In this document: positions 175 to 60,371 of the stretch, one piece after another
How the letters are laid out: the number at the start of each line of letters is the position of its first letter
How positions within the stretch are numbered: position 1 is the first letter of the stretch
From: Chloroflexia bacterium
GTDB taxonomy: Bacteria > Chloroflexota > Chloroflexia > QHBQ01 > JADMIH01
NCBI GenBank assembly: GCA_036399775.1
Contig: DASWMJ010000009.1
Span: forward strand, 3,866 to 67,865
Length of the DNA stretch: 64,000 nucleotides
Direction: 5' to 3'
Made by a program: the position numbers and the translations under genes
The notes under the pieces: model-generated
What the model was told of the DNA's origin: nothing
Databases searched by the model: none
The model's input: the letters and a program-made list of their open reading frames with translations, nothing else

Positions 175-421
175 CGCCCCAAAGCGCCCAAATGAACCTT
201 ATCAGGCGTAAATGTGTCAATATGATATAGGGGCGTAGTGCGTAGTACGTACTGCGTATCGCATAGTGCTTATCACGAAAATACGCATCACACGACAGTA
301 GTACAAATTACGACAGACATTCAGTTTTCCTGAGAGGCTTGGGGAAACTGGTTTTTATTGCACCCAACCGAGTAAACGTCACCCTACAACTACCATCTGT
401 CACTGAGACTAATATCAAACT

Positions 422-7694: not shown

Positions 7695-7916
7695 ATGCAG
7701 AGCGAACTTACCAGGGCCATTTACGACTCGGCGGGCATGGACTGGCAGACCGCCGAAAAGGTCGTCTACACATTCCTTACATACATGGAGCGCAAGATGC
7801 CGCCGGAGGACTACGCGGTGCTCAAGCGGTACATGCTCGGCGACGTAGAATACAAGCTGCCCGACAGGTCGGCCTATCCCGGCTATGCGGGGGAGATACC
7901 GGACCAGGCGCGATAA
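7695..7916 (+). CDS. Small hypothetical protein (73 aa)
   Basis: MQSELTRAIYDSAGMDWQTAEKVVYTFLTYMERKMPPEDYAVLKRYMLGDVEYKL... preceded by ggaggtcacacgATG. Family not recognised. Confidence 0.4.
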   Translation: MQSELTRAIYDSAGMDWQTAEKVVYTFLTYMERKMPPEDYAVLKRYMLGDVEYKLPDRSAYPGYAGEIPDQAR

Positions 7917-8028
7917 ACTTAGCACAGAGCATGGCCGCGATGCCCGGTTCGCATATCTGACGGAAAGTGGGGGCACGAGATAATCGTGCCCCTACGCGCA
8001 TCTTTGGGGTTGAGCAGGGGGTTTTGCG

Positions 8029-9180
8029 ATGAAAAGTGGCGTGTTCAAGATCGTGACCATAGGGGGCGTGGACATCAAGGCCCATTGGAGTTGGCTGCTG
8101 ATCCTGCTCCTCTTCACCTACCAACTGGCTACCCTCTACTTCCCAAACGCGCTGCCCGGCGAGAGCGAGATTGTTTACCTGGCGCTGGGCCTGGTGGCCG
8201 CGCTCCTCCTGTTCGTGTCGGTGCTGGTACACGAGTTGAGCCATGCGTTCATGGCTCGCGCTCGCGGGTTGAAGGTGCGCGATATAGTGCTCTTTATCTT
8301 CGGCGGCGCGGCCAACATCGAACAGGAGCCCGAGAAGCCGGGGGACGAGTTCCTCATAGCGGTGGTCGGGCCGTTGACCAGTATAGCCCTTGCTGCCCTC
8401 TTCTACGGCCTGGCGCTCATTGTTGACCCACCCATGAGGCGGGCGGGAGCATTCGCGGCCTCCGTCCTACAATACCTGGCCTTTATCAACTTCATGCTGG
8501 CACTGTTTAACATGATACCCGGCTTCCCCCTGGACGGCGGGCGCGTGCTGCGCTCCATAATCTGGGGCGTGACCCGAAACTTCCAGTCAGCCACGCGCAT
8601 TGCGGGCTTCTTCGGCCAAATGGTAGCTTATGGCTTTATCTTCCTGGGCCTTTACCAAACCTTCTTCCAGGGTGGCTTCGACGTGAGTGGGCTGTGGCTG
8701 GCCTTTATCGGCTGGTTCCTCCTGAACGCCACCCAGCAGAGCGTGGCAGGCTCTACCATACGCAATATCACACGCGGTATCACCGTAGCCCAGGTTATGC
8801 AGCAAGCCCCAACTATGGTTGCGCCCCACTATACGCTGGCGCATCTGCTTACACAATTTATGCTCCCCTACAACCTCCGCGCGATGCCCGTAGGCCAGGA
8901 AGGCAGGCTTGAGGGCATAGTCACCCAGAGCGACATCAAGGACGTGCCGCAAGACCAGTGGGGCATCGTCACGGTGGGCAATGTGATGACGGCAGGCGAC
9001 AATCTGCGCACGGTAAGCCCTCAGGACGGCCTGGAACGCGCCATGCAGCTACTAAGCGAAGGTGATTTCGACCAATTGCCGGTGGTAGACAATCTCGGCA
9101 AGCTGGTAGGCATGCTCTCCCGCGCCCACGTCCTGCGCTGGCTCCAAATCAGGGACGAGTTGAAGATGCGTGAAACGTAA
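8029..9180 (+). CDS. Site-2 protease family (M50) zinc metallopeptidase with C-terminal CBS domain pair
   Basis: HExxH in VLVHELSHAFMARARG; multi-TM core. C-terminal region ...PVGQEGRLEGIVTQSDI...LPVVDNLGKLVGMLSRAHVLRWL is typical of CBS pairs. Confidence 0.85.
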   Translation: MKSGVFKIVTIGGVDIKAHWSWLLILLLFTYQLATLYFPNALPGESEIVYLALGLVAALLLFVSVLVHELSHAFMARARGLKVRDIVLFIFGGAANIEQEPEKPGDEFLIAVVGPLTSIALAALFYGLALIVDPPMRRAGAFAASVLQYLAFINFMLALFNMIPGFPLDGGRVLRSIIWGVTRNFQSATRIAGFFGQMVAYGFIFLGLYQTFFQGGFDVSGLWLAFIGWFLLNATQQSVAGSTIRNITRGITVAQVMQQAPTMVAPHYTLAHLLTQFMLPYNLRAMPVGQEGRLEGIVTQSDIKDVPQDQWGIVTVGNVMTAGDNLRTVSPQDGLERAMQLLSEGDFDQLPVVDNLGKLVGMLSRAHVLRWLQIRDELKMRET

Positions 9181-9181
9181 A

Positions 9182-9236
9182 ACGTCAAGATGGCATGTGC
9201 TCCGGTAGGGTAAGCCAGACTTCGCCTGCGGGGAGG
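9182..9236. repeat. Direct repeat DR1-left: displaced copy of the 3' end of gene 10564..11487
   Basis: acgtcaagatggcatgtgctccggtagggtaagccagacttcgcctgcggggagg aligns with 10561-10616 (6 substitutions plus 1 indel). On the minus strand it still encodes PAGEVWLTLPEHMPS-stop. Confidence 0.8.
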
Positions 9237-9335
9237 ACTTGGCAGTTGTAGGCTCGTCATGTGAAATTACAGCGGAGTATGCCACTTGAATAAACGCCAA
9301 GTTGCAGTTTTTCTGGCCGTTTCCGATGAGAATAG

Positions 9336-10388
9336 CTATGAGCCGAGTTTGCCGTAGGCCTTAAGAATACGATATGTATCTTTACCGTCTATAAAGCAGT
9401 AGTAACGTGGCTGATAGGCATATCGAGCCAATGCCGCAAGTACATGTCTAACCTTATGATCAATATCATGGGCATGTTGGACGATCAACAAATCCGCTTG
9501 CACAGTTGCTAATCTATAGAGCTGGTCATTGGCCTTACCCTGATTGCTACTCAATGTCATAGGGCTAAAACGGGCAGGACCCTTCAGTAAGAACGCTGCT
9601 GTAACTCTCTTGCCTCCAATATGCAAAGCAGGAGTGAAGTGATCCATTTGTTCGCCTCCCCAGTCTTTACCAGTTGTATCTCCAAGCAAATCAGCTAATC
9701 TCGCCTTTATAACCTTCTCTGGCAGGTTCTTCATTTGAGATTGCCAAACAGCTAATGCAGGCGGCATTATCTTTCGACACTCACTAAACTCATCTATATT
9801 TTCTGCATGGATCTCGAATGTTTCGTAGCCAGGCCATATAACTGAATAGTCTAAATCGTGATGAGCAGAGTTATGGGTAACGACAGGCAAGCCGATCACT
9901 AAAGGCTGGATGACCACTTGCTTCTCATCAAAACTGTGTATCCGTCCTATGATTGAAACAGGTGCGCCTTCAGTCAACAAGACTCTCATGGTGGTTGATA
10001 CAAAATGCTCTGGACTGAAATCTAGAATTATAGTACGTGCATCGTATACCTGTCCAATGACCTTTTGTATGCGCTCGTTATCTGATCTGAGTTTTCCAGG
10101 TGCCACACGCTCCAAACTTGCGAATACCGTCCCCTCCCGCAGGTCATGAAGAACGGCAGCTAGTGTGGGAATACGCTTATTACGACACTTGGCAAGAACA
10201 CGATCAGACAAGAACACGCTTCTGCTCTTTACACCGAAAGGGTCGGTAAGTAGGAGCAACGCAGGGAACCGAAGAGTAATCTCAGCAATTATAGAAGGTC
10301 CAATGAACGACATACACATCCGCTCATTAAGAAATCCAGGATCAACATTTACCTCATATCCATCTGAACCAAAGAGCACTCTTATCAC
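9336..10388 (-). CDS. Hypothetical protein, cargo of low-GC islet 1 (no family recognised; C-terminal region with clustered D/E/H/K residues, possibly nuclease-like)
   Basis: 350-aa ORF in clearly AT-richer DNA, GTG start (alternative GTG at 10379 has a GAGGTG RBS). Its own ~170-bp AT-rich upstream region is 10389-10560. C-terminus ...GKDWGGEQMDHFTPALHIGGKRVTAAFLLKG...LLIVQHAHDIDHKVRH.... Confidence 0.65.
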   Translation of the reverse strand: MIRVLFGSDGYEVNVDPGFLNERMCMSFIGPSIIAEITLRFPALLLLTDPFGVKSRSVFLSDRVLAKCRNKRIPTLAAVLHDLREGTVFASLERVAPGKLRSDNERIQKVIGQVYDARTIILDFSPEHFVSTTMRVLLTEGAPVSIIGRIHSFDEKQVVIQPLVIGLPVVTHNSAHHDLDYSVIWPGYETFEIHAENIDEFSECRKIMPPALAVWQSQMKNLPEKVIKARLADLLGDTTGKDWGGEQMDHFTPALHIGGKRVTAAFLLKGPARFSPMTLSSNQGKANDQLYRLATVQADLLIVQHAHDIDHKVRHVLAALARYAYQPRYYCFIDGKDTYRILKAYGKLGS

Positions 10389-10560
10389 CTCACAGTTGCA
10401 GAACTGCGACTAAAACACAGATGGGTGCATTTAAGGCTCCCATACCACAAGTAGAATCAGAATATCCTATATGGTTGTGCCGAAGATGGGATGCGAACTC
10501 ACAGTTATGCTAGATATAAGCAATCGACAAGACACCCTTCCATGATGAGGTGTCTGCCCC

Positions 10561-10616
10561 ACGTCAAGACGGCATATGCTCCGGCAGGGTGAGCCACACC
10601 TCGCCTGCGGGGGAGG
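10561..10616. repeat. Direct repeat DR1-right: functional 3' end of gene 10564..11487
   Basis: acgtcaagacggcatatgctccggcagggtgagccacacctcgcctgcgggggagg; partner of 9182-9236. Confidence 0.8.
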
Positions 10617-11487
10617 GCTTGCTGCGAGGAGTGAGGCCGGGGCCGCCTAGCACTCTAATGGCTAGTAGAGTGCCGTCCTGGAGCATTTCTTCCACTACCC
10701 TCTCGGTCACGCCTGGGTCCCAGCCGAATAGGCGCGGGAAGATGTGGGAGGGCGCGCCCACCGAGGTATGGAGGTATCGCTCTATCAGGTAGCGCATGGC
10801 GGCGCGGCTGTTGTACTGGCGGGCCTGCTCCGCCAGGTTGGGCGCCCACCTGAGCAGCAGGTCGTAGATGTAGCAGTATTTCCACCTGTTCGAGTCGGAG
10901 ATGCCCGCCTTCACTATCTTGAGGTCGCCCTGTAGCTCCACTATGGCGCGCTCGAAGCGGCGAGCGTTATCTCCCCCACCTCCCATGCCGCAAGCCTTCC
11001 TCATCGCGCTGGTGGGCATAGGCCCTTCCCTCAGCAGCGTTTCGTAGACCAGTTTGGCCTCCACGCTCATCATTCCGTCCGCGTAGGCTTCCAGGTAGTC
11101 GTCAATCTCCCCGTAGTTGGAGGAGAGAGCGTAGACCGCAGGCAGATCGCGCATCGAGATGAAGGCGGGCTTTCCCCGGATTATCTTGCCGTACCATGCC
11201 TCCTTGCGCTCCGGTATCTTGTCTTTCCAGTCCCAGGTCTTGTGGAGGGCGTAGTCGTGGTGGTGCTTGGGCAGCTTGCGCTCGCAGCCGTTGATGGCGC
11301 TCCACAGGTCGGGGAGGGGCAGCCTATCGCCCGGAAAGAGGAGGGCGATACCTACGTCGTTGATGAATTTCACCGCTTCACCCTGCGTCTTCACCTTGAA
11401 ATCGGGGTGCATGCGGTAGCGCGGCAGGCGCACGTCGAGTATATGCGTGTAATGGAAGACAGGTAGGGAAACAGGTTCAGCTAGCAT
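10564..11487 (-). CDS. Conserved hypothetical protein (307 aa)
   Basis: Long ORF with typical high-GC codon usage. Overlaps the downstream EamA gene start by 11 nt, so operonic. No family recognised with confidence. Confidence 0.6.
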   Translation of the reverse strand: MLAEPVSLPVFHYTHILDVRLPRYRMHPDFKVKTQGEAVKFINDVGIALLFPGDRLPLPDLWSAINGCERKLPKHHHDYALHKTWDWKDKIPERKEAWYGKIIRGKPAFISMRDLPAVYALSSNYGEIDDYLEAYADGMMSVEAKLVYETLLREGPMPTSAMRKACGMGGGGDNARRFERAIVELQGDLKIVKAGISDSNRWKYCYIYDLLLRWAPNLAEQARQYNSRAAMRYLIERYLHTSVGAPSHIFPRLFGWDPGVTERVVEEMLQDGTLLAIRVLGGPGLTPRSKPSPAGEVWLTLPEHMPS

Positions 11488-12499: not shown

Positions 12500-12619
12500 G
12501 AGCCAATTATAACTGAGAACACATGGGCTAATCCAGGGGACATATCGCTTGCAAAGTGGGATGTTGTGGAATATAATCAGCCTGTGGGACTGTTATGGTT
12601 CCGGCCAGGAGGCATCATT

Positions 12620-13618
12620 ATGAAAACGACGAAAGTCAGAGAGAAGGTTGCCGAGCAGCCGCCGGTGGCTGAGGAGGATGAGCCACGAAAGGAGAGGGCG
12701 GTGCAGGCGGCGCTCTTCACGCTCAACGGGAGGGGGGAGCTTACCGACCCCGTAGCCGACATCCCGGCGCTCGGCCCATCTTCCAGCCTGGACGTGGCGC
12801 GCTGGTGGTACAAGCGCCACCTAGAGCAGCAGAAGCGGCCCATCAACACGATAGACTCCTATATGTACGACCTTGCGCTCTTCCAGGAGTCGCTTGGCAA
12901 CAAGACGCTCGACCGGGTGAACAACACCGACATAGCGAACTTCCTGGGGCAGGCGAACAACAAGTCTACCCGCAAGCGGCGGCTTACCTCCTTGCAGGGC
13001 ATGTACCGCTACCTGGTGAACAAAGAGAAGATACTGCCCAAGAACCCCTGCGACAGCTTCTTCCCCGACTACATCCCCCTCAAGACGCCGCGCACCCTCT
13101 TCCCGCAAGAGCAGGACGCTATGCTTGAGGCCGCCCGCGACGAGAACTCGCGCACTTACCTGATCGTGTACCTGCTGCTGAAGCTGGGGCTGACGCGCAC
13201 CGAACTGCTCGCGCTGAAGGTAGACCACATAGACGTGAGCAACCCCGACCAGCCCATCGTCTACATTTACTATGACGAGATACGCTGGCAGCCGAAGGAG
13301 CGCAAGCTGGCGGCGGATGCCGAGTTCACCGATGCCTTCCTGCGGTACGTGGAGGAATACAGCCCGGTAGCGCGCATGTTCAATCTGCTGCCCCAGTCCA
13401 TCAACAAGATAGTGGACCGTATAGCCGAGGCCGCAGGGATAGGCAAGACGGTGACGCCCCAATCCCTGCGCGATACCTTCGCCGTTGAGCAGGCGAAGAT
13501 CGGGGCCGACGAAAAGAAGCTGCTGCTAATACTGGGCCTCGCGCCCGACAGCCGCAACCGCAAGAGCGTGCAGAGGTACATGAAGCTGGCCGCCCCGCCC
13601 GTCGCTGGCGTGGTGTGA
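12620..13618 (+). CDS. Tyrosine-type site-specific recombinase/integrase (divergent active-site residues)
   Basis: GGAGG RBS then ATG at 12620. N-terminal SAM-like core-binding region (WWYKRHLEQQKRPINTIDSYMYDLALFQESL). Catalytic-domain motifs LTRTELLALKVDHIDV (Arg-I), QSLRDTFAV (HxLRH box with H->Q and H->D), LGLAPDSRNRKSVQRYMKL (Tyr). Confidence 0.75.
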   Translation: MKTTKVREKVAEQPPVAEEDEPRKERAVQAALFTLNGRGELTDPVADIPALGPSSSLDVARWWYKRHLEQQKRPINTIDSYMYDLALFQESLGNKTLDRVNNTDIANFLGQANNKSTRKRRLTSLQGMYRYLVNKEKILPKNPCDSFFPDYIPLKTPRTLFPQEQDAMLEAARDENSRTYLIVYLLLKLGLTRTELLALKVDHIDVSNPDQPIVYIYYDEIRWQPKERKLAADAEFTDAFLRYVEEYSPVARMFNLLPQSINKIVDRIAEAAGIGKTVTPQSLRDTFAVEQAKIGADEKKLLLILGLAPDSRNRKSVQRYMKLAAPPVAGVV

Positions 13619-13704: not shown

Positions 13705-14112
13705 ATGCACTGGCTAGCGATTGTACTCGTCTTAACTCCGGTGATTCTGTTGTGCGCACACTGCATCCTGGCCAATAGAATCGGAAGAAATAGAAGTTTC
13801 TTTTCGATCTTGGCAGGGTTGTTAGGATTGACGGTTGTTACTACTTTAACTTGGGTAGGCTCATCTTACGCGGCTGCGTACTTTGTTTTTCAAACTCGTG
13901 AACCCAAACAACAAACTCTGCTTGATGTGTTTGATAAGACATTATCATTGCCCTTCTATCTGTTCCCTCAGGCTCCGATTCTACAATCCTTCTTAGGTCT
14001 GCCGCCAATGAACGTAGCGAGTGTTCTGCTATTGCCTTCTGTTCTGTTAATACTGGGTTTAGTTTTTGCTACCATTCGAGTTCCAAGGCGCATAGCGAGA
14101 GTGCAGGCATAG
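13705..14112 (+). CDS. Small hypothetical membrane protein in a low-GC patch
   Basis: 135 aa, 3-4 hydrophobic helices. Surrounding DNA 13640-14180 is AT-richer than the flanks. Confidence 0.45.
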   Translation: MHWLAIVLVLTPVILLCAHCILANRIGRNRSFFSILAGLLGLTVVTTLTWVGSSYAAAYFVFQTREPKQQTLLDVFDKTLSLPFYLFPQAPILQSFLGLPPMNVASVLLLPSVLLILGLVFATIRVPRRIARVQA

Positions 14113-14752: not shown

Positions 14753-14999
14753 CTCACCCAACTACATCTCCCCTATTCGAGAGGAATGTTCAAGAGAAGA
14801 AAACAGGCGGCGCAGTAGCCTGTTTTCTTCTTTAACTAATGATTTTACACTTGCCAACAGAGAAATATAAACATTTGAAATTTCACCTTGCCTAAATTGT
14901 GTATTGACAATATAAGAAATGGGATATATAATGAGGTATAATTTAGACTAGCCTAAAAATCACTACCGATTATGTACCGGGGTGTTGGAGATCATCAGA

Positions 15000-17342: not shown

Positions 17343-17358
17343 AGAAAAAGAGATTATC

Positions 17359-17403
17359 AATAAGCGGAAAATGGGCGGCGCAGCCGCCCATTTTCCGCTT
17401 ATT
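17359..17403. terminator. Bidirectional terminator-like palindrome (AAAATGGGCGGC-GCA-GCCGCCCATTTT family)
   Basis: 21-bp perfect arms aataagcggaaaatgggcggc / gccgcccattttccgcttatt between convergent genes. A related palindrome is at 23487-23536. Confidence 0.65.
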
Positions 17404-17444
17404 GACAAAAAACATCTCTCTGTCCAGGCCAGTCACCCAGGTCC

Positions 17445-23486: not shown

Positions 23487-23536
23487 TCAAAAATAATAAA
23501 ATGGGCGGCGCAGCTGCCCATTTTATTATTTTTGAA
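23487..23536. terminator. Terminator-like palindrome (same core as 17359-17403)
   Basis: ttcaaaaataataaaatgggcggc gca gctgcccattttattatttttgaa. Confidence 0.6.
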
Positions 23537-23597: not shown

Positions 23598-26243
23598 CTA
23601 TTTGGTAGGGCTTGCAGCCTCACAGGTTGGGAAGAAGGTATTTGTTACGATCTTCGACACCTGGCCCCTGGTGGCATTGTTGTTTACGCGGAAGTAGGGT
23701 TTGTTGTCTGAGCCGCATGGCTCTCCCTCCCCGCCACAGTTGTAGCCGCCCATGATGCCGCGAATAGCCAGCCTCTGCACCCAATCGTAGAAGCTGCTGC
23801 CGGGCGGTACATCCTCGAATATCTGCGTGCCAGCCGGTTCGTTGTAACCCGCCGCGTTGGAGACTATCTTGGAGATTTGCCCCCTGGTGGCGTTGTTGTT
23901 CGTGCGGAAGTAAGGCTTGTCGTCCGAGCCGCACGGCTCGCCCTCTCCACCGCAAGCGTACCCGCCCATGATGCCGAGGTTGGACAGCCTATTTATCCAG
24001 GTGTAGAAGGTGCTGCTGAGCGGCACGTCCTCGAATATCTGTGGGCCGGGGTCCGCGTCGAAGCCCGCCGAGTTGGACACTATCTTGGCTAACTGGCCCC
24101 TGGTTATCGAGTTGTTGGGGCGGAAGGTGTTGTCGCCATACCCACTGATGACATCCTGGGTTGCCATGCACTCGATGAAGGAGTAGAAGGTATTGGTGGT
24201 GGGCACGTCATAGTAGCGTTGGCCCGGCCCCAGCGGGTCATATCTTATGATAGTGCTTCTACTCCCTACAATCCAGCCTCCACGTCCCGGTACGAGAGAT
24301 ATACCATTTAATTCAGACTGGGTAGGCGGATAACCTTCTGAGCGCCATTCCCCGCCTACGTTGTGGTATGCCCAGCCTCCAATGCCCCATGCTTCACCGA
24401 GAGCTTCCGCCGATAGGCTGTAGATGCTGCTACCCCCCTCGATGTTGGTATCTACCGTCCATACTCCGCCGCTTAATCGTAGCACCCCGCCCCCGCCATT
24501 CGAACTTGTGCCGGCTGCCCAGCCCGCCGTTCCATCTGGTGCCAGCAAAATATCGCGCAGGTGCGGAGCGTTTGCAGGCAGGCTTGAGCTGCGGTCTACC
24601 CAGTTGCCTCCGGTATACTCCAACAAGACCGGAACATAGTTCTCAGGTAAAGGTACGAAATCATACCCCACTGCCCAGCCGTGGGATGGGGAGTCCATCG
24701 CCACCGCGTAGAGGTCTCGTGTGGTTGGGCTAGCCACAGTGCTCCATGTTCCACCGGAGGCGTGCCAGATAGCTCCGTTCTCCCCCACAACCCAGCCCTC
24801 TCCACTGCCTAGCATGTACACCCCATGTAAAGGTGCAGGGGAACTTATTACTTTCGTCCAATAGGTGCCGTCCCATTTCAGGACCCCATCAACCCCTACC
24901 GCGTAACCATCAGTGGGAGAAATCATTTGTACGTCATATAGTGCGTTGATAGACAGGGACGTAACGGGTTGCCACGTGCCACCCGTATAATGCAAGATGC
25001 TGCCAAGCTCACCGACTGCCCAGGCATCATCTGTGCTGAGAGTAAAAACAGAATAGAGATCGCTGGTGACTGGGCTGCCGCGCTCCCGTGGCCAAAATCC
25101 AGTGCCGTGGCGGCTCAGGATGATGTCCGCCTCGCCGACGGCCCAGACCTGCCCCGCTACGCCTGACACATCGAAGATACGCGTTCCGCCGATGTCGTCG
25201 TCAAGGCTCCAACTCGTACCGTCCCAGCGCAATATCGTATAGGGCGTCACCACCCAACCCTGCGAGGAGTCAAGCATGAACAGGGAGGTCGGGTCTGTGC
25301 CGTGCTCGGGTATCGCGAAGGAACTCCATGTGCCGCCACTATAACGATACAGTTTATCCGTGTTGTCCGTGTCATAGCCTGTGAACCATATATCCGTCGG
25401 TGAGGCTACTGAAAGTTCAATTAATCTACCTACGTCAGCCAGCACGGCTACGGAAGACCACGTTCCCGCGTTGTAGTGGTACAAGACAGGTGTGGTTGGC
25501 GCGCCCCCACCTGGGTAGTCGAAGCCGACCGCCCAGCCGTCGGTGGCACTTGCCATCTTGATATCGGTGAAGTGAGTAGTAAAGGGGATCGCCGGCCCTG
25601 CTGCCGTCCAGCTACTGCCATCCCAATGTGCTATCCTACCGCAACAGTTTGTGCGTGGGTTGTAAAGATACCCCAGGCCCCACACGTCATCTGCGGATAC
25701 TGCGGAGACGTAATTGACATAGAGAGCGTCAGGACCGAGACCCTGGCTCTTCTCCTGCCATACGCTGCCGTTGTACTGGAAGGCCTTGTACCCGGTCACG
25801 AGCCACCCGCTGCTCGATGACACCATATCAATGTCTTTTATAAACTCGCCGCGCATATCAGTTGGGTCAACTTCGATCCAGGAGCCGCCCGTGTAATGCA
25901 GCAGATGACCATATTCACCGCCAGCCCATGCGTCTGTGCTTGACACTGCGCTGACTGTGTTCAGATCAGGATAGAGGTTAGTCCAGTTGCCTACGGTGAC
26001 GGCCTCCGGCCCGTTCCTGTTGTCCGCGCCCGGCTGGCAAGACGTGGGCATGGCTGGCGGGGTAGAAGGCTTTTGTCCTACCCCTTTATCCGTCCTAGGA
26101 GCGGACCACGCGCTGGTGCTCGCGGTCAGCATAGCCAACAGCAAAATCAGCGTAAACCCGATACCAGCCGTAAGCCATCTACTCTCACGTCGCATACCAG
26201 GGTGGTGCCTGTCGGACCGCCGCATGAAGAAATATGCAAACAC
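23598..26243 (-). CDS. Cell-surface beta-propeller repeat protein with three C-terminal SLH-like domains
   Basis: Signal peptide (true start probably MRRESRWLTAGIGFTLILLLAMLTAS, ~26195). A GGTW/DGTSW-type motif recurs every ~45 aa. Three C-terminal repeats F.DVP....FY.WI.RL...GIMGGY.CGGEGEPCGSD.KPYFR.NNN.TRGQ.SKIV match the SLH consensus with a Cys-containing loop insertion. Confidence 0.75.
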   Translation of the reverse strand: MFAYFFMRRSDRHHPGMRRESRWLTAGIGFTLILLLAMLTASTSAWSAPRTDKGVGQKPSTPPAMPTSCQPGADNRNGPEAVTVGNWTNLYPDLNTVSAVSSTDAWAGGEYGHLLHYTGGSWIEVDPTDMRGEFIKDIDMVSSSSGWLVTGYKAFQYNGSVWQEKSQGLGPDALYVNYVSAVSADDVWGLGYLYNPRTNCCGRIAHWDGSSWTAAGPAIPFTTHFTDIKMASATDGWAVGFDYPGGGAPTTPVLYHYNAGTWSSVAVLADVGRLIELSVASPTDIWFTGYDTDNTDKLYRYSGGTWSSFAIPEHGTDPTSLFMLDSSQGWVVTPYTILRWDGTSWSLDDDIGGTRIFDVSGVAGQVWAVGEADIILSRHGTGFWPRERGSPVTSDLYSVFTLSTDDAWAVGELGSILHYTGGTWQPVTSLSINALYDVQMISPTDGYAVGVDGVLKWDGTYWTKVISSPAPLHGVYMLGSGEGWVVGENGAIWHASGGTWSTVASPTTRDLYAVAMDSPSHGWAVGYDFVPLPENYVPVLLEYTGGNWVDRSSSLPANAPHLRDILLAPDGTAGWAAGTSSNGGGGVLRLSGGVWTVDTNIEGGSSIYSLSAEALGEAWGIGGWAYHNVGGEWRSEGYPPTQSELNGISLVPGRGGWIVGSRSTIIRYDPLGPGQRYYDVPTTNTFYSFIECMATQDVISGYGDNTFRPNNSITRGQLAKIVSNSAGFDADPGPQIFEDVPLSSTFYTWINRLSNLGIMGGYACGGEGEPCGSDDKPYFRTNNNATRGQISKIVSNAAGYNEPAGTQIFEDVPPGSSFYDWVQRLAIRGIMGGYNCGGEGEPCGSDNKPYFRVNNNATRGQVSKIVTNTFFPTCEAASPTK

Positions 26244-26481: not shown

Positions 26482-28536
26482 CTATGGTTCTGTAGCTAAG
26501 ACACACGCCGGGAAGAAGGTAGCTGCCGCTATCTTGGCGGTCTGGCCTCGCGTCACGTCGGCGTTGGGGCGGAAATATGGGCGGTTGGCGGGTGGCACGC
26601 ACGGCTCGTCCTGCGTGCCGCAACGGTAGCCCCCGATGCTGCCATGCGCAGACAAGCGCTCTATCCAGACGAAGAAAGCGTGAGAAGCAGGCACATCCTG
26701 GAAAGTCTGCTCGGTATGCGGCTCGTTGTACCCGGCGGCGTTGGAGATGATCTTGGCAAGCTGGCCCCTGGTGGTGTCGTTGTATGGCCGGAAGTATGGC
26801 TTGTTGTCAGGGGCTATGCACGGCTCCCAGTAAAGCCTGCCGCATGGGTAGCCACCCAGGATGCCTCTGCGAGCCAGCCTGTTTATCCAGGGATAGAAGC
26901 CATCATATACGCCTACATCCTGGAAAATAGCCGGCCCCGGATCGTCGTTCAGCCCGGCGGCGCTTGCAACTATCTTGGCGATCTGGCCCCGCGTGATGTC
27001 GGTGTTGGGTCGGAAATAGGGGTCGTTGTTGATATTGCAAGGCTCATTCGGGTACCCGCATTGGTACCCGCCTACGATGTTTCTGCATGCAAGATAATGT
27101 ATGTAGGGATAGAAGACATTGCTGGGCGGCACGTCGGTGAAGCGCGTCTGACAGTCGTTCGTTGTGCTGGTGTAGTGCTGGATGAGGGTCCGAGGCTCGT
27201 AGTCATAGCTGTAGCCGCTGGCCCGCCCTACCGCCCATACGTCGCCGGGGGCGATTACTACGACTGAAGAAAGGTAGTTGTAGGTCACAGGCCCGAAGTC
27301 CGGAGTGGGCACGATGCTCCACGCCTGCCCATCCCAATGTGCGGAGATAGAGCGCGGCCAGTAGTAATAGCCACCTGCGCGTCCCACGGCCCATATATCG
27401 TCCGCCGAGCGTGCATCTACCCATAGGAACTGGTAGTCCTCTTCGGTGGGCACCGGCACGGGCACCGCCTCAAAGGCGCTCCCGTCCCAATGGAGAGACA
27501 ATGGCCTGTACACTCCCCTGTTGTCTATATAATATCCTACAGCCCACACGTTATCGGCGGAGACTGCATCAATGGAGAGCGCCAGGTTGTCCGTCGATCC
27601 CACGTTGGGGCTTGGCACGACGCTCCATGCCAGGCCATCCCAATGCATCGCCAGAGTCCTGAGCAGATCGTCCGTGCTGATGGAGAAGCCCACCGCCCAG
27701 ATGTCGCTTGCTGAAATGATAGCCAGGTCGTGCAGCGCGTTGCCTTCCGGCCCAGTGTTGGGGCTGGGCACTACAGTCCACGCCTTCCCCTGCCAGCGCA
27801 TCGTCAAGGTCTGCCCAACGCCCACGTCATCTATGTAATACCCAACCGCCCACACGTCGTCCGCCGTTACGGCTTGCACGGAAAGCAATTCGTTATCCCG
27901 CAGTGGGGTGGTGTTCGGGCTAGACAAGATCTCCCACTGCGTACCATTCCAATGCTCAACAAGCGTCTGGGCCACGCCAAAGTCGTTGAGGTAATAGCCT
28001 ACCGCCCACACGTCATCCTCAGCGACGACATCCACAGACAGCAGGTGATTATCATCAAGTCCAACATTTGGGCTGGGCACGATGGTCCACTGGGTGCCGT
28101 CCCACCGCTCAACTAACGTGCGGAGCACGAAGGTGCTGTCTTCACGGTCCGCGTGCCCGCGCTTCAACGATTGCCACTTCTCCAGCTCGGTCTGCCGTTC
28201 GTGATGCGAGCCGTTGCTCCCCATGTAGTAGCCAACCGCCCACAACTCGTCTGCTGATACGGCGTCCACGCTATAAAGCTCGTTCGGCCCCTCCTCAGCG
28301 TTGGGGCTGCTGACCACGTACCAAACGGATGGGCAGGTAGCGGTTCCGATCGTGGTCGCAGGCGCACCGCCTGGCGCGTCGCTCTTGATTGGCTCAGTGT
28401 ATGGTTGGGGTTGCGGCCCCTTGCCTTTGGCCGCGACCTTCCCGCCATCCCCTGCGGAATAGCTATTGCTGGCCGTGAGCATTGCCCCTGCCGCCAACAA
28501 CATAAATGTCCCTACCAGTATGATGAGACTCTTCAT
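26482..28536 (-). CDS. Paralogous cell-surface beta-propeller protein with three C-terminal SLH-like domains
   Basis: Signal peptide MKSLIILVGTFMLLAAGAMLTAS. Repeats D.VWAVGYY...W.G..W; the same Cys-loop SLH-like C-terminal triplet as 23598..26243. Confidence 0.8.
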   Translation of the reverse strand: MKSLIILVGTFMLLAAGAMLTASNSYSAGDGGKVAAKGKGPQPQPYTEPIKSDAPGGAPATTIGTATCPSVWYVVSSPNAEEGPNELYSVDAVSADELWAVGYYMGSNGSHHERQTELEKWQSLKRGHADREDSTFVLRTLVERWDGTQWTIVPSPNVGLDDNHLLSVDVVAEDDVWAVGYYLNDFGVAQTLVEHWNGTQWEILSSPNTTPLRDNELLSVQAVTADDVWAVGYYIDDVGVGQTLTMRWQGKAWTVVPSPNTGPEGNALHDLAIISASDIWAVGFSISTDDLLRTLAMHWDGLAWSVVPSPNVGSTDNLALSIDAVSADNVWAVGYYIDNRGVYRPLSLHWDGSAFEAVPVPVPTEEDYQFLWVDARSADDIWAVGRAGGYYYWPRSISAHWDGQAWSIVPTPDFGPVTYNYLSSVVVIAPGDVWAVGRASGYSYDYEPRTLIQHYTSTTNDCQTRFTDVPPSNVFYPYIHYLACRNIVGGYQCGYPNEPCNINNDPYFRPNTDITRGQIAKIVASAAGLNDDPGPAIFQDVGVYDGFYPWINRLARRGILGGYPCGRLYWEPCIAPDNKPYFRPYNDTTRGQLAKIISNAAGYNEPHTEQTFQDVPASHAFFVWIERLSAHGSIGGYRCGTQDEPCVPPANRPYFRPNADVTRGQTAKIAAATFFPACVLATEP

Positions 28537-44148: not shown

Positions 44149-44275
44149 TTGCCCTTGCGACTGAAGTCGCGGGCAACAAAAACAAAGTCGCCCTTCGGCG
44201 ACTACTCTATCCAATATAGTCCGCGCAGGCGGACTTCGTAATCGTTGCCCGCGACTTCAGTCGCAAGGGCAATTT
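44149..44275. repeat. REP-like palindrome, copy flanking tnpA on the 5' side
   Basis: attgcccttgcgactgaagtcgcgggcaac...gtcgcccttcggcgac...agtccgcgcaggcggact...gttgcccgcgacttcagtcgcaagggcaat. Confidence 0.75.
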
Positions 44276-44299
44276 TGACAATAGCAAAGGGGCAGGCGT

Positions 44300-44728
44300 A
44301 TGCGCGCACCTTACACGCAACTTTATCTGCATTGCGTTTGGGCAACATGGGATCGCTTGCCATTGATTACCCCTACCGTTGAGCCGCACGTTTATGCTTG
44401 TATAGCTACCAAGTGTGAGGAGCATAGTTGTGAAACGCTTGCCGTTGGTGGAATTGAGGACCATATTCACCTACTGGTACGCTTTCCTCCTACGCTTGAA
44501 ATAGCAAGAATTATGAAAGAGGTAAAAGGCGCATCGTCGCACTTGATGACACATGTGCTTACGCCGGATGTCTTCTTCAAGTGGCAAGGCGGGTATGGAG
44601 CATTCACGGTTACTAAATTTGGAGTGGATAAAGCCAGAGCCTATGTAGAGAAGCAAAAGGAGCATCACTCCGCGAACCGGTTGTTTTCAGAATGGGAACG
44701 ATACGAATTCGATGATAAAGATGCGTGA
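44300..44728 (+). mobile_element. tnpA: IS200/IS605-family Y1 transposase (TnpA; REP-associated tyrosine transposase-like)
   Basis: 142 aa. HxH motif in GIEDHIHLLVRF; N-terminus MRAPYTQLYLHCVWATWDRLPLI and ...GGYGAFTV... are typical of IS200-like TnpA. Flanked on both sides by REP-like palindromes. Confidence 0.8.
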
Positions 44729-44737
44729 TCCCCGACA

Positions 44738-44870
44738 TTGCCCAGCGACTGAAGTCGCGGGCAACAAAAACAAAGTCGCCCTTCGGCGACTACTCTCTCC
44801 TAGAGAGTCCGCCTGCGCGGACTTCGTTTCCGTTGCCCGCGACTTCAGTCGCCGGGCAATCCTCCGGCGC
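44738..44870. repeat. REP-like palindrome, copy flanking tnpA on the 3' side
   Basis: attgcccagcgactgaagtcgcgggcaac...gtcgcccttcggcgac...agtccgcctgcgcggact...gttgcccgcgacttcagtcgccgggcaat. Confidence 0.75.
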
Positions 44871-47789: not shown

Positions 47790-48731
47790 TTGCCACTCGT
47801 AGACATGTATCGCGCCCTTGATAGCGAGCGGCGCAAAGTTATCGTTGGGCAGCGTTGGACGTTCGATTTGCTGCTCGTGGCCCTGCTCACCGACGGGCAC
47901 GTCTTGTTGGAGGGAGTGCCGGGGGTGGCTAAGACCCTCATGGCGCGCACCCTTGCTACTACCCTGCGAGCCGACTTCAAGCGCGTGCAGTTCACACCTG
48001 ACCTCATGCCCTCCGACGTTATCGGCACCAACGTATTTGACCTGGCGAGCAGCACTTTCTCTCTGAGGCGGGGACCCGTATTTACCAGCATCATGCTAGG
48101 CGACGAGATAAACCGCGCCCCGGCCAAGACCCAATCGGCACTCCTGGAAGCGATGGAGGAGCGTCAGGTGACTATTGACGGCGTGAGCCACCCCCTGCCC
48201 GATCTCTTCATGGTCATCGCCACCCAGAACCCAATCGAGTACGAGGGCACCTACCCCTTGCCGGAGGCGCAACTCGACCGCTTCCTCTTCAAAGTGCTGG
48301 TGGACTACCCTACGCACGAAGAAGGTCTGCAAGTATTGAGGAATTACCAGGCGGGGTTCAGTCCGCGCAGGCTAACGGGTATAGAGCCGGTGGCGGGGCC
48401 GGACGACCTGCGCTCGGCGCGCCACGAGATAGCCGCCATCAAAGTAGCCGACCCGCTGATCGACTACATCCAGCGCATCGTGGACGAGAGCCGCCGCTCA
48501 CCCGATTTGTCGCTGGGTGGCTCCCCACGCGCCGCGATAGCCCTTCTCAACGCGAGCAAAACCCTCGCCGCGCTCCAGGGCCGCGAGTACGTTGTGCCCG
48601 ACGACATCAAGCTCCTGGTGCCGCCCGTTATGCGCCACCGCGTCATCCTCAAACCCGAAGCTGAGATAGAGGGGCTGAACGCCGATCGTGCCCTTGAGCG
48701 CATCATGGCGCGGGTCGAAGTACCCAGGTAA
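47790..48731 (+). CDS. MoxR-family AAA+ ATPase
   Basis: Walker [13 protein letters not shown], Walker B region [24 protein letters not shown], then the ...[21 protein letters not shown] sensor motifs. Confidence 0.88.
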
Positions 48732-48784
48732 ATTGCGAATTTCGGATTGCGGATTGCGAATTTGATGACCTTAGATTTTACGGC

Positions 48785-50164
48785 ATGATAACGCGGCGTG
48801 CTCTTTATTTGCTGCTGCTCGCGGCACCTATACTCGCGCTGGCGACTATAGTGCCCGTCGCTGTATGGGCGGCTGCTCTTTACCTGGCGGGTATGCTGGC
48901 GCTGCTGGCCGCCGACTTTTGGCTGTCGCCCAAGCCTTCCGACTTCAGGCTTGCACGGGAGAATGAAAGCAAGCTCTCCCTCGGTGCAGACAACATGGTG
49001 CGTATCGCTATCAGGCGGCTGGGCGCGCCCGGCGGCCAGGGCCTGAGAGATGCCCCCGTGCCCTTCCTGGTGCGCGACGAGCCTCCGGTCGAGTACATCG
49101 CCAGCGACGTATTTCTCCCACGCAGCAACGAGGCAAATAACTCAAAACTCAAAACTCAAAACTCAAAACTCGAAATCGGTCCAGGGGAGACGGCGGAAGT
49201 CAGCTATACCGTCAAGCCGTTGCGGCGCGGGGACTATGCGTTCGGTGGGTGCCACCTGCGCTATGGCGGCGTGCTGGGCCTCATCCTCCGCCAGCATCGC
49301 TACCCCATCGGTGCGCCCGTGAAGGTCTACCCTAACCTACTGGAAGTGCGTAAATATGAATTGCTGGCGCGGCGGGACCAGCTATTCGAGATAGGGCTGA
49401 AGAATGCTCGGCGCATAGGGCAGGGCACCGAGTTCGAGCGGCTGCGTGACTATGAGCGCGACGACGACTACCGCCGCATCAACTGGCCCGCCACCGCCCG
49501 CCTGCACAAGCCCATCACTACGGATTACCAGCCCGAAAGGAGCCAGAGCGTTATCGTCATGCTCGACGCGGGGCGATTGATGACCGCGCCCCTCGGCCCG
49601 CTCTCCAAGCTCGATTATGCTATCAACACGACGCTACTGCTGGCATACGTAGCTATAATTCGGGGGGACCGGGTCGGCCTCCTTACCTTCGCCGATAGAG
49701 TGACGGGCTACTGGGAGCCGGACAAGGGCCGCAAGCAGTTCCTCGCGCTGCTGGATGCCCTCTACAAGGTGCAGCCCCAGCAAGTTGAGGCCGATTATAT
49801 GCGGGCGAGCGCGTTCCTCTCTACGAGGCGCAGCAAGCGCAGCCTGGTGGTGCTCTTCACCGACATTATAGACAGGCAGCAGGCCGACGTGATGGTGCGC
49901 GGCTTCGGGCGGCTGGCCCCACGCCACCTGCCTGTGGCCGTGACTATGGCCGACAACGAAGTGCTGACTATGGCCCACCGCGAACCGTCCGATGCCCAGC
50001 AGATGTACGAGAAGGTAATCGCCCAGCAACTCCTGGACGACCGCGTGAAGGCTCTGGACGCCCTCCAACGCCGGGGCGCGCTCACCATAGACGTGCCCGC
50101 CGACAAGCTGACGCCTGCGGTAGTGAACAAGTACCTTGAGCTAAAGGCGCGAGGGAGGTTGTAA
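48785..50164 (+). CDS. DUF58-domain protein (vWA-like, MoxR partner)
   Basis: DYERDDDYRRINWPATARLHKPITTDYQPERSQSVIVMLDAGRLM is the DUF58 core. Contains an in-frame AACTCAA heptamer array (49139-49177) encoding NSKLKTQNSKLEI. Confidence 0.8.
   Translation: MITRRALYLLLLAAPILALATIVPVAVWAAALYLAGMLALLAADFWLSPKPSDFRLARENESKLSLGADNMVRIAIRRLGAPGGQGLRDAPVPFLVRDEPPVEYIASDVFLPRSNEANNSKLKTQNSKLEIGPGETAEVSYTVKPLRRGDYAFGGCHLRYGGVLGLILRQHRYPIGAPVKVYPNLLEVRKYELLARRDQLFEIGLKNARRIGQGTEFERLRDYERDDDYRRINWPATARLHKPITTDYQPERSQSVIVMLDAGRLMTAPLGPLSKLDYAINTTLLLAYVAIIRGDRVGLLTFADRVTGYWEPDKGRKQFLALLDALYKVQPQQVEADYMRASAFLSTRRSKRSLVVLFTDIIDRQQADVMVRGFGRLAPRHLPVAVTMADNEVLTMAHREPSDAQQMYEKVIAQQLLDDRVKALDALQRRGALTIDVPADKLTPAVVNKYLELKARGRL
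50081..50164. repeat. Direct repeat DR2-left: native 3' end of the DUF58 gene (84 bp)
   Basis: ctcaccatagacgtgcccgccgacaagctgacgcctgcggtagtgaacaagtaccttgagctaaaggcgcgagggaggttgtaa. Partner at 52063-52146 has 5 differences. Confidence 0.85.
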
Positions 50165-50538
50165 AATCGGTTTCAGATCCCCACTCTTCGTATCGTCTTC
50201 AGCCATTGCAATCATTCCATTAGGTTATCAGCCTCGAGTAGGTTGCAGAGGACTTTGAGATGCTTAGGCGAGGGTGATAATTGTGCTGGCTAGCTGTGCT
50301 CAATAATATCTTGGGAAAGTTGAGCTTTGCGTAACGAAAGCCACATAGTATGAATATTCTTCAAAATAGACGTGTAAAATGTGGGAAACTGTGGTACAAT
50401 GAGGTGTACGGAGTGCATATGTTTATGTAATGCCTCGTTTTTCCGCCCTCAGTATAGAGTTCTGGCACCAAGCTATTCAAGAGAAATCAGCATTTTGGGG
50501 TAGGGTGCTAAGAGCTAAAGGAATAAGGGACGAGTGTT

Positions 50539-50862
50539 GTGCCATTCACTAAGGGATTCGTATCTGAATCAGAACTACTCGACCACTTTGATAGGCATAA
50601 TAAACTGATTGGCGCGCATGATGAGCAGCATTACTTACAGCTTGCTGACACGTTTTTAGGCGGTCCCAAAGGCCCCACAACGCTGGAGTGCCCCGAAAGA
50701 GCGCGAGATGGGTGTTTGACTAGATTTGATTATGTTACAAATGAATTTGGTGTGCTGACCCCTGATAGCTATATTCTGTCGTATTATATACCGGAGCCGA
50801 AACGTCATAAACAGCGTACCAATACAAAGTATTTTCAGGCTGATTGCAGGAGCAAAGAATGA
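50539..50862 (+). CDS. Hypothetical protein (107 aa), islet 2 gene A
   Basis: ORF in AT-rich islet, GTG start, overlaps the next ORF by 19 nt. No family recognised. Confidence 0.45.
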   Translation: MPFTKGFVSESELLDHFDRHNKLIGAHDEQHYLQLADTFLGGPKGPTTLECPERARDGCLTRFDYVTNEFGVLTPDSYILSYYIPEPKRHKQRTNTKYFQADCRSKE

Positions 50863-51248
50863 ACTATACATGTCCAGTTTGCGGATACGACAAATTGATT
50901 AGCCCGCCAGCGAACTATCATATTTGCCCATCCTGTGGCACCGAGTTTGAATACGATGACTTTGCCACGAGCCATGATCTGTTGCTTAAGCAGTGGATAC
51001 GAGAAGGGATGCCCTGGCATAAGACGCGAACTGGCCCGCCGCCCGGATGGGATCCGGTCGTGCAGATCTTCCAAGCCGGACTTGGTGCTGCTCTAATCGA
51101 ATTTATGGCAAGGGAAGCCCGGCAGAGCTACGAGGCTATTACACTGGGTACGGTGCAGCCCTACGTTTCAGGTAGCATCAAGCTTACTACTAACGCGCCT
51201 GCACACCAATTGAGCACTCAGAACTGTTTTGCCTTCGCCTCTAGTTAA
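50844..51248 (+). CDS. Hypothetical zinc-ribbon protein (134 aa), islet 2 gene B
   Basis: N-terminal CPVCGYDKLISPPANYHICPSCGTEF (two CxxC pairs). Confidence 0.5.
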   Translation: MQEQRMNYTCPVCGYDKLISPPANYHICPSCGTEFEYDDFATSHDLLLKQWIREGMPWHKTRTGPPPGWDPVVQIFQAGLGAALIEFMAREARQSYEAITLGTVQPYVSGSIKLTTNAPAHQLSTQNCFAFASS

Positions 51249-51266
51249 GTACATGAGAGAAAAGCA

Positions 51267-51725
51267 ATGCCCAAGCTTGTCGTCTTCGCGCCATGCCTAA
51301 AGGTGATTATCAGCGAGAGAGATGACTCACTCTCGCTGATAGCGCTAATGGATGCTATAAAAGTAAGTGTTGCTGAGGGTGCGGAAGTGCCTGCTGATGC
51401 CAAAGTACCTAATGCCTGGGACATCCTCGCTTTTTGGCGTAACTCAGCGGATGATGCAGGAAAGGAATACGAGCAACGTACGCGGCTTTTACTACCTAAT
51501 GGCGAAACGAGTGTAGAAGCAACAATGTCCTTTTCAGGTAATAATCGTTCGCATCGGAATGTGATCAATATTACCGGAGTTCCGGTTGGACAGGCAGGTG
51601 AATGCTCCCTTCAATTATGGCTTCGCGAAGCGGGTGCGGATGATTGGGGAGATCCTGTAGCAGATTATTCTTTGATGGTCATCCATGATACTGTACCAGT
51701 AGAGACGGAGCAACCCGAAGAATAG
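51267..51725 (+). CDS. Hypothetical protein (152 aa), islet 2 gene C
   Basis: ORF 19 nt after gene B, same strand. No family recognised. Confidence 0.45.
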   Translation: MPKLVVFAPCLKVIISERDDSLSLIALMDAIKVSVAEGAEVPADAKVPNAWDILAFWRNSADDAGKEYEQRTRLLLPNGETSVEATMSFSGNNRSHRNVINITGVPVGQAGECSLQLWLREAGADDWGDPVADYSLMVIHDTVPVETEQPEE

Positions 51726-51878
51726 ATAGTAGGAGCAGCCCACGTCATGCTTCCTGTGTGAGACCAAGAAATCCGGCGGGTTACCCGGCAGTGCTTAGGG
51801 TATCGGCGGAGGCACTGAATGGAGAGGTGCTCATAAGATCCTCCTGACTAAAGAGCTCAGTCTTATCATGACTGAGCT

Positions 51879-52046
51879 CTAATCTTCGGCTTCCTCGTCA
51901 AAATCCTCATAGCCCCAATCAACATCGTCCAGTTCATATATGCTCAAAAGTTCGTTCTTTAGATCCTTCCCTTCTACCTCGTTGGAGAAAACCTCTTCTG
52001 AATACACCTGTAGCATACCTTTTTCATCCCTTTCAATCTCAGTCAT
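51879..52046 (-). CDS. Small acidic hypothetical protein (55 aa), islet 2 gene D (start trimmed)
   Basis: MTEIERDEKGMLQVYSEEVFSNEVEGKDLKNELLSIYELDDVDWGYEDFDEEAED. The longer ORF to 52184 is antisense to the duplicated DUF58 3' end. Confidence 0.35.
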   Translation of the reverse strand: MTEIERDEKGMLQVYSEEVFSNEVEGKDLKNELLSIYELDDVDWGYEDFDEEAED

Positions 52047-52062
52047 TTTCCATAAGCCCGTC

Positions 52063-52146
52063 CTCACCATAGATGTGCCTGTCGACAAGCTCACGCCTGC
52101 GGTGGTGAACAAGTACCTTGAGCTAAAGGCGCGAGGGAGGTTGTAA
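52063..52146. repeat. Direct repeat DR2-right: second copy of the DUF58 3' end
   Basis: ctcaccatagatgtgcctgtcgacaagctcacgcctgcggtggtgaacaagtaccttgagctaaaggcgcgagggaggttgtaa. Encodes LTIDVPVDKLTPAVVNKYLELKARGRL-stop, versus native ...PADKL... (4 synonymous and 1 A->V change). Confidence 0.85.
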
Positions 52147-55202: not shown

Positions 55203-55252
55203 AAGGCTTATGTACCACTATAAGTATAAGCCTGTAGAGGAAGAGTGGCAAA

Positions 55253-55413
55253 TGCGGAGTGCGGAGTGCGGAGTGCGGAAGGCGGAGTGCGGAGTGCGGA
55301 GTGCGGAGTGCGGAATATAGCCGAGCACTAACGCCAACATTACCGATTACCCAAATTGGCCTATCTTAATTCCGCATTCCGCACTCCGCATTCCGCACTC
55401 CGCATTCCGCATT
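55253..55413. repeat. Inverted pair of heptamer arrays (GCGGAGT x9 / TTCCGCA x6) around a 53-bp centre
   Basis: gcggagtgcggagtgcggagtgcggaaggcggagt... atagccgagcactaacgccaacattaccgattacccaaattggcctatcttaa ...ttccgcattccgcactccgcattccgc. Confidence 0.8.
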
Positions 55414-60250: not shown

Positions 60251-60371
60251 CGTATTGCGTAGTGCGTATTTCGTATTGCAATGGAGTTAGTGAACTTGAG
60301 TTGTGGAAGCTAGCTATTACTAACCCTCTTTGATTGGGACCTTACGCAATACGAAATACGCACTACGTAAG
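60251..60371. repeat. Inverted pair of heptamer arrays (CGTATTG/CGTAGTG) around a ~75-bp centre
   Basis: cgtattgcgtagtgcgtatttcgtattgca ... ttacgcaatacgaaatacgcactacgtaa (exact reverse-complement arms). Confidence 0.8.

Follow-up and report, generated by a model that had tools for sequence, protein, structure and literature searches.

Integrase-less islets flanked by attachment-site (att) repeats are known from the cis-mobilisable elements (CIME) of Streptococcus integrative and conjugative elements (ICEs) and from the pseudo-staphylococcal cassette chromosome (pseudo-SCC) cassettes at the 3′ end of rlmH/orfX. In both, the repeats are the targets of a known family of recombinases, and related elements at the site carry such an enzyme. 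Restriction and restriction-modification genes have also been described as entering genomes by "insertion with long target duplication" (Nobusato et al. 2000, Gene 259:99; Furuta, Abe and Kobayashi 2010, NAR, PMC2853133), for which the later paper gives as operational features an insert of <20 kb without mobility genes, repeats of >30 bp and, in a related genome, only one copy of the repeat. The published cases include a solitary type IV gene, and their repeats often span the stop codon of a target gene that stays intact (PMC2853133). Here we describe a locus of similar layout in a 64,000-nucleotide stretch of an uncultured Chloroflexia bacterium (GenBank assembly GCA_036399775.1, contig DASWMJ010000009.1, positions 3,866 to 67,865; hereafter the window, in whose coordinates features are given), where an AT-rich islet with a single gene lies between two copies of the 3′ end of an AlkZ-related gene. 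The islet is an insertion of compositionally foreign DNA. Our favoured explanation, to which we give a probability of roughly 45%, is that it is a horizontally acquired single-gene defence islet that entered by integrase-free insertion with a target duplication of ~60 nt, after which the orphaned copy of the gene end decayed.

A repeat search of the window returned an ungapped direct repeat at 9182-9233 (copy A) and 10561-10612 (copy B), offset by 1379 nt and identical at 46 of 52 nt (88%); local alignment lengthens it to 9182-9241 (60 nt) and 10561-10621 (61 nt), adding one 1-nt indel in a C-run and one substitution. Copy B is the functional 3′ end of an intact minus-strand gene (10564..11487) encoding a 307-aa AlkZ-related, YcaQ-like winged-helix protein (Pfam AlkZ-rel PF24741, 2.6e-33), with the stop codon at 10564-10566 and 3 nt beyond it. 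Copy A, also on the minus strand, is an orphan consisting of the last 19 codons of that gene, its stop codon and 3 nt. It lies 1 nt past the stop codon of the resident flanking gene, a plus-strand M50 metalloprotease with CBS domains (8029..9180; Pfam Peptidase_M50 1.2e-23, CBS 6.2e-19), with the two stop codons 4 nt apart, and it occupies the position held by the native gene end at the empty sites of relatives described below. All six differences within the 52-mer are synonymous and in third positions (GAG/GAA, GTG/GTC, CTC/CTT, CTG/CTA, CAT/CAC, CCG/CCA), both copies encode the identical peptide PAGEVWLTLPEHMPS-stop, and the longest identical blocks between them are 12 and 9 nt. These data bear out a preliminary description of the locus, made by a model that had reported a duplicated gene end with six synonymous-only substitutions and one indel, with the ends of the repeat adjusted as given here. 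A degenerate form of the 52-mer (≤3 mismatches) finds only these two copies in the window, where shuffled sequence gives an expectation of 0, and a back-translated 42-nt pattern has no match in a metagenome contig collection that apparently lacks the source contig, which shows only that the repeat is not widespread. A common dispersed repeat, an outcome that would have undone the earlier interpretation, is rejected on these two results.

The insert of ~1.3 kb between the copies has a GC content of 0.43–0.48 across 9200-10550 (0.45 for the islet overall) against 0.58–0.66 in the flanks, and contains one real open reading frame (ORF), the minus-strand cargo gene at 9336-10388, whose GC at third codon positions (GC3) is 0.41 compared with 0.75–0.83 in five neighbouring genes. 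Upstream of the cargo gene lies an AT-rich leader of 172 nt (10389..10560, minus strand, GC 0.43), with a 7-bp stem (AGACACC/GGTGTCT) directly after the AlkZ-rel stop codon. Between the cargo stop and the orphan copy is a non-coding tail (9242..9335, minus strand) without an ORF or credible similarity to the part of the gene upstream of the repeat. A scan of the islet for promoter and terminator consensus sequences returned nothing informative, with neither kind of consensus in the leader, and neither the ORF list nor a Pfam domain search revealed a recombinase or transposase gene within it. The islet is thus, as first described, an AT-rich single-gene insert that carries no integrase, and the proposal that its cargo was acquired horizontally is upheld by the foreign composition together with the empty sites.

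The empty-site comparison called for in the preliminary description was carried out, and in two relatives from the Genome Taxonomy Database (GTDB), L004 and L005 (71% and 67% identity in AlkZ-rel), the AlkZ-rel stop abuts the convergent M50 stop with gaps of 1 and 10 nt. Strains of the same clade, with 96–98% protein identity and about 93% DNA identity in AlkZ-rel, carry different small cassettes at this place. L014 has a 150-aa 23S_rRNA_IVP gene, also found in a contig of sample 3300067032, between inverted heptamer arrays, and L018 has a DUF1801-like gene; the nuclease islet itself was seen in one strain only. The AlkZ-rel/M50 junction is therefore a strain-variable hot spot. The gene end is present as a single copy in L014, L018 and L024, and no duplicated gene end was found beside the other cassettes at this spot (L014 and L018, the latter covered for only ~0.9 kb past the stop and ending before M50) or in more distant relatives. 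Among the AlkZ-rel proteins, the C-terminal tail LPEHMPS is confined to this clade.

Several further features of the hot spot and of its surroundings in relatives were recorded. In L002 and L003 (77–78% relatives) M50 is not downstream of AlkZ-rel, and a perfect palindrome, cttacaattattcgacccgcagggtcgaataattgtaag, follows the gene (8975-9030 and 8945-8990, respectively) and synteny changes. Tandem heptamer arrays (with units that include CGTATTG, CGGAGTG and CGTGAAA) occupy intergenic positions both in the window (234-277, 48726-48765, 55238-55314, 60251-60280 and 61328-61357) and in relatives (L014 2197-2235 and 2708-2735; L024 471-500; L018 5086-5110). Those of L014 are the inverted pair on either side of its hot-spot cassette with the 23S_rRNA_IVP gene. 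Within the window, the LexA-like gene at 60472-61170 is enclosed by two arrays in direct orientation, and a single array separates the MoxR gene from the DUF58 gene, a position at which L023 carries an IVP gene. The arrays resemble termini or scars left by a different class of small cassette. Not far away, at 7843-9608, L014 also has an EcoRV-like endonuclease gene with a D12-class methyltransferase gene, inserted between ftsK and a gene for an ABC permease; the window lacks these genes at that position, so this defence insertion too is specific to a strain.

The cargo encodes a protein of 350 aa from an unannotated family. At least 344 homologues of ~350 aa share 35–43% identity with it (closest found, 43%), all annotated as hypothetical, in Chloroflexota, Acidobacteriota and Proteobacteria, and searches of Pfam, NCBIfam, PADLOC and PDB sequences gave no match. 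Its predicted architecture comprises a helical region at the N terminus, an OB-like barrel and, at the C terminus, a restriction-type nuclease domain of the FokI/MspJI type, in which the alpha-beta-beta-beta-alpha-beta core fold of the PD-(D/E)xK superfamily is present. Across an alignment of 40 family members, 32 columns are invariant, and the cargo conserves every one of them, E246, D249 and K269 among them. Two residues before K269, where (D/E)xK canonically has an acidic residue, there is a leucine, and alignment of the cargo against the FokI cleavage domain with hhalign shows no profile similarity (probability 0.2), so that the nuclease assignment holds at the level of the fold only; a Foldseek search against the PDB gave only weak OB-fold matches. 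One homologue sits between hsdR and ygjP in a type I restriction-modification locus with an Mrr-type gene, and the islet, with its single ORF, has no methyltransferase. We read the cargo as most probably a solitary restriction-like endonuclease, perhaps modification-dependent, which would act in defence against foreign DNA. Phage and plasmid DNA collections searched with the islet gave no match. Plasmid matches at the protein level were limited to two hypothetical proteins (Rhodococcus and Gordonia), and a metagenome protein scan, in a collection apparently without the source contig, returned three loci only.

The preliminary description had taken the synonymous-only divergence to mean that the second copy was shaped as coding DNA in another lineage. 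If six substitutions fall randomly on the 48 coding nt, the chance that all six are synonymous is indeed small (P = 7e-5 to 3e-4). This random-placement test treats both copies as free, however, while the working copy B can change only synonymously. Selection on the functional copy explains part of the synonymous pattern, and polarising the changes takes an outgroup; for this we used the sister alleles of L014, L018 and L024. Relative to the clade consensus (gaa gt(c/g) ctc ctg cac ccg), two changes are private to functional copy B (gag, cat), and the Val codon is a shared polymorphism (gtc in copy A and L014; gtg in copy B, L018 and L024). Three changes are private to orphan A (ctt, cta, cca), all of them GC-to-AT transitions, and just upstream of the 52-mer the orphan also has a CCC-to-TCC change (Pro-to-Ser, C-to-T) and a 1-nt deletion that shifts the frame. 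With two to three of the six differences lying on the gene copy and the orphan's changes resembling decay, a history of coding selection in another lineage is not required; an imported allele is a possible, not a demonstrated, source of the second copy.

Of the orphan's own four substitutions, three are in third positions, which has a probability of about 0.15 under neutrality given the G/C positions. Third positions differ by 0.17–0.18 between this strain and either L014 or L018, or about 0.09 per lineage, a rate that agrees with the orphan's divergence of 5 changes in 61 nt (0.08 per site). Copies A and B differ from each other at six positions and each differs from L018 at six and from L014 at three. 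The pattern in orphan A looks like neutral decay, and the data fit a history in which the two copies were near-identical at insertion and then diverged in place, one selected and one neutral.

Two further islets share this anatomy. The repeat search of the window also found an 84-nt direct repeat at 50081-50164 and 52063-52146 (94% identical), which is the last 27 codons and stop of a DUF58 gene (48785-50164). It bounds an islet of 1.9 kb with a GC content of 0.41–0.55 and three small ORFs (107, 134 and 152 aa; one a zinc ribbon), at a position where a sister strain has msrB directly after DUF58 with no gene between. The copies differ by four synonymous changes and one Ala/Val change; with L022 as outgroup, four changes are private to the orphan (three C-to-T, including the Ala-to-Val missense) and one to the gene copy. 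The third example (L013 5436-7327) is in an unrelated metagenome contig, where a cargo homologue (39% identical) lies in a 1.7-kb insert of lower GC that has, on its two sides, 81-nt copies of the 3′-terminal part of a Sua5/YciO/YrdC gene including the stop codon. Its copies differ by one synonymous change, one Ala/Thr change and one 1-nt deletion; the substitutions, being without an outgroup, are not assigned to either copy, and the deletion belongs to the orphan, because the ORF of the gene copy is uninterrupted. No recombinase gene was found in any of the three islets (window 9182-10621, window 50081-52146 and L013), and their three target genes are unrelated. The idea that both window islets belong to one element family was rejected, as they share no terminal sequences. 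Around three other cargo homologues (L009, L012 and L025) no convincing long duplication was detected: the flanks of L009 have only a 29-nt match (83%), L012 is near a serine recombinase and L025 is beside an insertion sequence (IS).

According to the favoured explanation, the islet would have entered one Chloroflexia lineage just past the AlkZ-related stop codon without a dedicated integrase, and ~60 nt of resident target (the last 19 codons, the stop and CGT) would have been duplicated in the process. The upstream copy, which keeps the target gene whole, would have stayed under selection, having changed only synonymously, and the downstream copy, no longer functional, would have drifted at the neutral rate and collected GC-to-AT changes, a missense change and a frameshift. 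The cargo would have been kept for defence, by virtue of a DNA-binding OB-like module joined to a FokI/MspJI-like PD-(D/E)xK cleavage domain. We favour integrase-free duplication followed by decay because of the GC-to-AT bias of the orphan's changes, the match in rates, the frameshifts and the lack of a recombinase, and the second window islet supports it with the same asymmetry (four orphan-private changes, one in the gene copy). The insertion, the duplication, the lack of mobility genes, the hot spot, the predicted fold and the direction of the substitutions are shown directly by the data, whereas the resident origin of both copies, the joining chemistry and the role in defence are what we infer.

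Four points weigh against this explanation. Pooled over the three orphans, 7 of 10 substitutions are in third positions (P about 0.03 under strict neutrality), and this excess makes some allelic, selection-filtered origin possible. The duplicated segment ends 0–3 nt past the stop codon in all three islets, an edge that counts against random staggered-joint insertion because such insertion does not predict it, whereas a gene-end copy on incoming DNA does. A search for a truly empty site in this very lineage found none, and the ancestral allele is deduced from strains that are ~93% identical in DNA. Finally, the paper that proposes double-strand breakage for long target duplication offers no proven biochemical mechanism (PMC2853133). 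Together the orphans also hold two frameshifts and three missense changes; under the clade's own coding constraint, in which 12% of changed codons are non-synonymous, three or more missense changes in ten would have a probability of about 0.1. Judged from these substitutions, neither a pure in-situ duplicate nor a pure foreign coding allele fits perfectly.

The alternative that survives best, though we consider it rather unlikely, is that the islet, already situated beyond the AlkZ-rel stop of a related strain, was imported from that sister lineage without a dedicated recombinase, a fragment or circle with the donor's gene end and islet having recombined with the resident gene so that the two repeat copies are two alleles of one population. 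The exchange could have been a Campbell-type homologous recombination on ~60 nt or a homology-facilitated illegitimate recombination anchored by homology within the gene and with its illegitimate joint 60 nt before the resident stop, and the end of homology at the stop codon would then simply be the start of the donor's islet. Import would also account for the pooled third-position excess, and the orphan is as distant from the other alleles (three to six differences) as an ordinary allele is, sharing its Val codon gtc with L014 while the gene copy has gtg like L018 and L024. Since the LPEHMPS tail is clade-specific, any donor would be a close relative, and there is a precedent in the illegitimate recombination, leaving displaced 3′ remnants, that has been proposed for type VI secretion system (T6SS) and Rhs loci (PMC5361080). 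However, the longest identical run is now 12 nt, which is too short for RecA unless most of the differences came later, and in that case the allelic signal is removed. The variants private to the orphan, all GC-to-AT, occur in none of four other alleles, and the frameshifts and missense changes in the orphans are likewise awkward for an imported coding allele. A donor strain with the islet but without the duplication was not found, the nearest cargo homologue being the one at 43% identity.

Site-specific integration, the interpretation offered in the preliminary description, would here mean that a tyrosine or serine recombinase, since lost or acting in trans, joined an attB in the AlkZ-rel gene end to an attP mimicking it; the islet would then be a non-autonomous or decayed integrative element, comparable to CIME or pseudo-SCC cassettes. 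We regard this as unlikely, although the layout is that of a textbook attL/attR pair, with direct repeats of which one completes the gene and homology that stops at the stop codon, and although identity falls sharply upstream of the 52-mer, as would be expected of an unconstrained P arm. The foreign composition and the existence of empty sites suit it too, as does a tyrosine recombinase gene at 12566-13618, 2 kb from the islet with two genes between it and the site. Orthologues of this gene, however, occupy the same position in L002, L003 and L004 (80–82% identity), and L018 has it as well; since L004 is an empty-site genome, the recombinase gene is a resident and not the integrase of the islet. 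Moreover, none of the three islets of this anatomy carries a recombinase, they lie in three unrelated target genes with no terminal sequence in common, and the other cassettes at the hot spot (that of L018 within its limited coverage) have no duplication. The islet and its att-like sequence were not found in the phage and plasmid collections or in the metagenome pattern scan, and the published screen separated long target duplication from typical site-specific recombination by repeats of >30 bp and the lack of a mobility gene (PMC2853133). What stands of the att interpretation is thus the repeat that completes the gene; a cognate recombinase and recurrent use of the att site were not found, and the nearby tyrosine recombinase belongs to the host.

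Three related candidates were rejected. Capture of integron or Xer type by the nearby tyrosine recombinase is at odds with its synteny in empty-site genomes and with its score of 41.7 bits against an integron-integrase cut-off of 265 bits, which is matched by scores far under the XerC and XerD cut-offs. An integron cassette was dismissed for want of an intI adjoining attI and of any visible attC-like element. A template and variable repeat pair of a diversity-generating retroelement (DGR) does not fit: the mismatches are not adenine-specific, only three of the six involving an A of the orphan copy, every one is synonymous, and the genes nearby include no reverse transcriptase. Between the tyrosine recombinase gene and a 4HBT thioesterase gene, the window has a low-GC (0.44) ORF of 135 aa (13705-14112) without a Pfam match; neither L018 nor the sample 3300067032 contig has it in the corresponding interval, and no long flanking repeat was seen around it.

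A bolder idea is that duplication of a gene end (the last 60–84 nt) ending at the stop codon is the signature of a distinct, undescribed integrase-free route for small defence islets, in which the OB-plus-PD-(D/E)xK nuclease family helps to drive its own insertion, for example through a break repaired with a gene-end copy. The same anatomy does surround two members of the nuclease family that are 39% identical and in unrelated genomes (the window and L013), but the second window islet has this anatomy without that nuclease, so the insertion route is at best shared and not nuclease-specific, and we think the idea improbable. That the locus is an assembly chimera of two co-occurring strains, with copy B and the islet from one and copy A and M50 from the other, is scarcely credible: the window does come from metagenomic DNA, as part of a 181-kb JGI contig, and public data contain several strains of the clade, but 3459 bp across the islet are 100% identical in the assemblies of three different pipelines (JGI, ENA/MEGAHIT and Logan; L015 and L017 are one identical sequence), and the copies share no k-mer >12 nt that could form a spurious de Bruijn graph path between them, which also makes misassembly induced by the repeat implausible.

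Elsewhere in the window, an IS200/IS605-type Y1 transposase gene (44300-44728, Pfam Y1_Tnp 6e-23) lies within 44157-44852 between two 108-nt palindromic copies that are 90% identical, an arrangement that resembles those associated with repetitive extragenic palindromes (REP) and their tyrosine transposases (RAYT-like). Three related intergenic palindromic hairpins with the core AAAATGGGCGGCGCAGCCGCCCATTTT (14789-14837, 17357-17405 and 23487-23535) probably represent one terminator-type element in several copies. Inside long ORFs, diverged repeats, both tandem and dispersed, occur at 23647-24140 and 26524-28270 with periods of ~216 and 153–306 nt; they suggest a repeat-domain surface protein.

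The locus offers a clean case, checked against empty sites, of a single putative defence gene entering the genome of an uncultured Chloroflexia bacterium without mobile-element machinery, and it draws attention to a widespread, unannotated family of predicted restriction-like nucleases that has no Pfam model. It also counsels caution in reading sequence on its own, as synonymous-only divergence between a gene end and its orphan is not by itself proof of a foreign allele. The edge anchored at the stop codon recurs in three islets and, if systematic, would bear on the mechanism of long target duplication.

Compared with known systems, the islet resembles CIME and pseudo-SCC elements in its layout, cargo-only DNA between direct repeats in which the end of a housekeeping gene is included and the gene remains intact; it differs in that a recombinase, a related autonomous element and recurrent use of the site were not found for it. 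The displacement of T6SS effector-immunity modules and Rhs tips (PMC5361080) is alike in that a module arrives on a homologous upstream segment and the resident 3′ part is orphaned downstream, but there a variable toxin tip and immunity gene are displaced, whereas here it is 60 nt that encode the same peptide as their replacement, without any variable part being swapped. From FokI, MspJI and AspBHI, which are type IIS or modification-dependent type IV enzymes, the cargo differs in having no detectable sequence or profile similarity, in the leucine at its (D/E)xK acidic position, and in an N-terminal module that is predicted to be a helical region with an OB-like barrel and not an SRA-like or FokI recognition domain. 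By analogy of structure, the AlkZ-rel islet would stand closest, among known systems, to insertion with long target duplication. Relative to that model, the islet differs in the identity of its repeats (88%, against mostly 93–100% in the tables of PMC2853133) and in its host, an uncultured Chloroflexia bacterium. The duplications of all three islets end at the stop codon, whereas the repeats of two Haemophilus examples overlap the gene end by 2–15 bp (PMC2853133). The restriction-type gene is recognisable in the islet at the fold level only, with no accompanying methyltransferase and no Pfam or PADLOC match. All the structural features given for the model are nonetheless present, with uniqueness of the repeat judged within the window: like the published cases, the islet is a small insert with a gene (here of predicted restriction type) and no integrase or transposase, its GC content is unlike that of its host, and it is bounded by unique repeats of >30 bp that correspond to one copy in relatives and extend over the stop codon, leaving the target gene intact.

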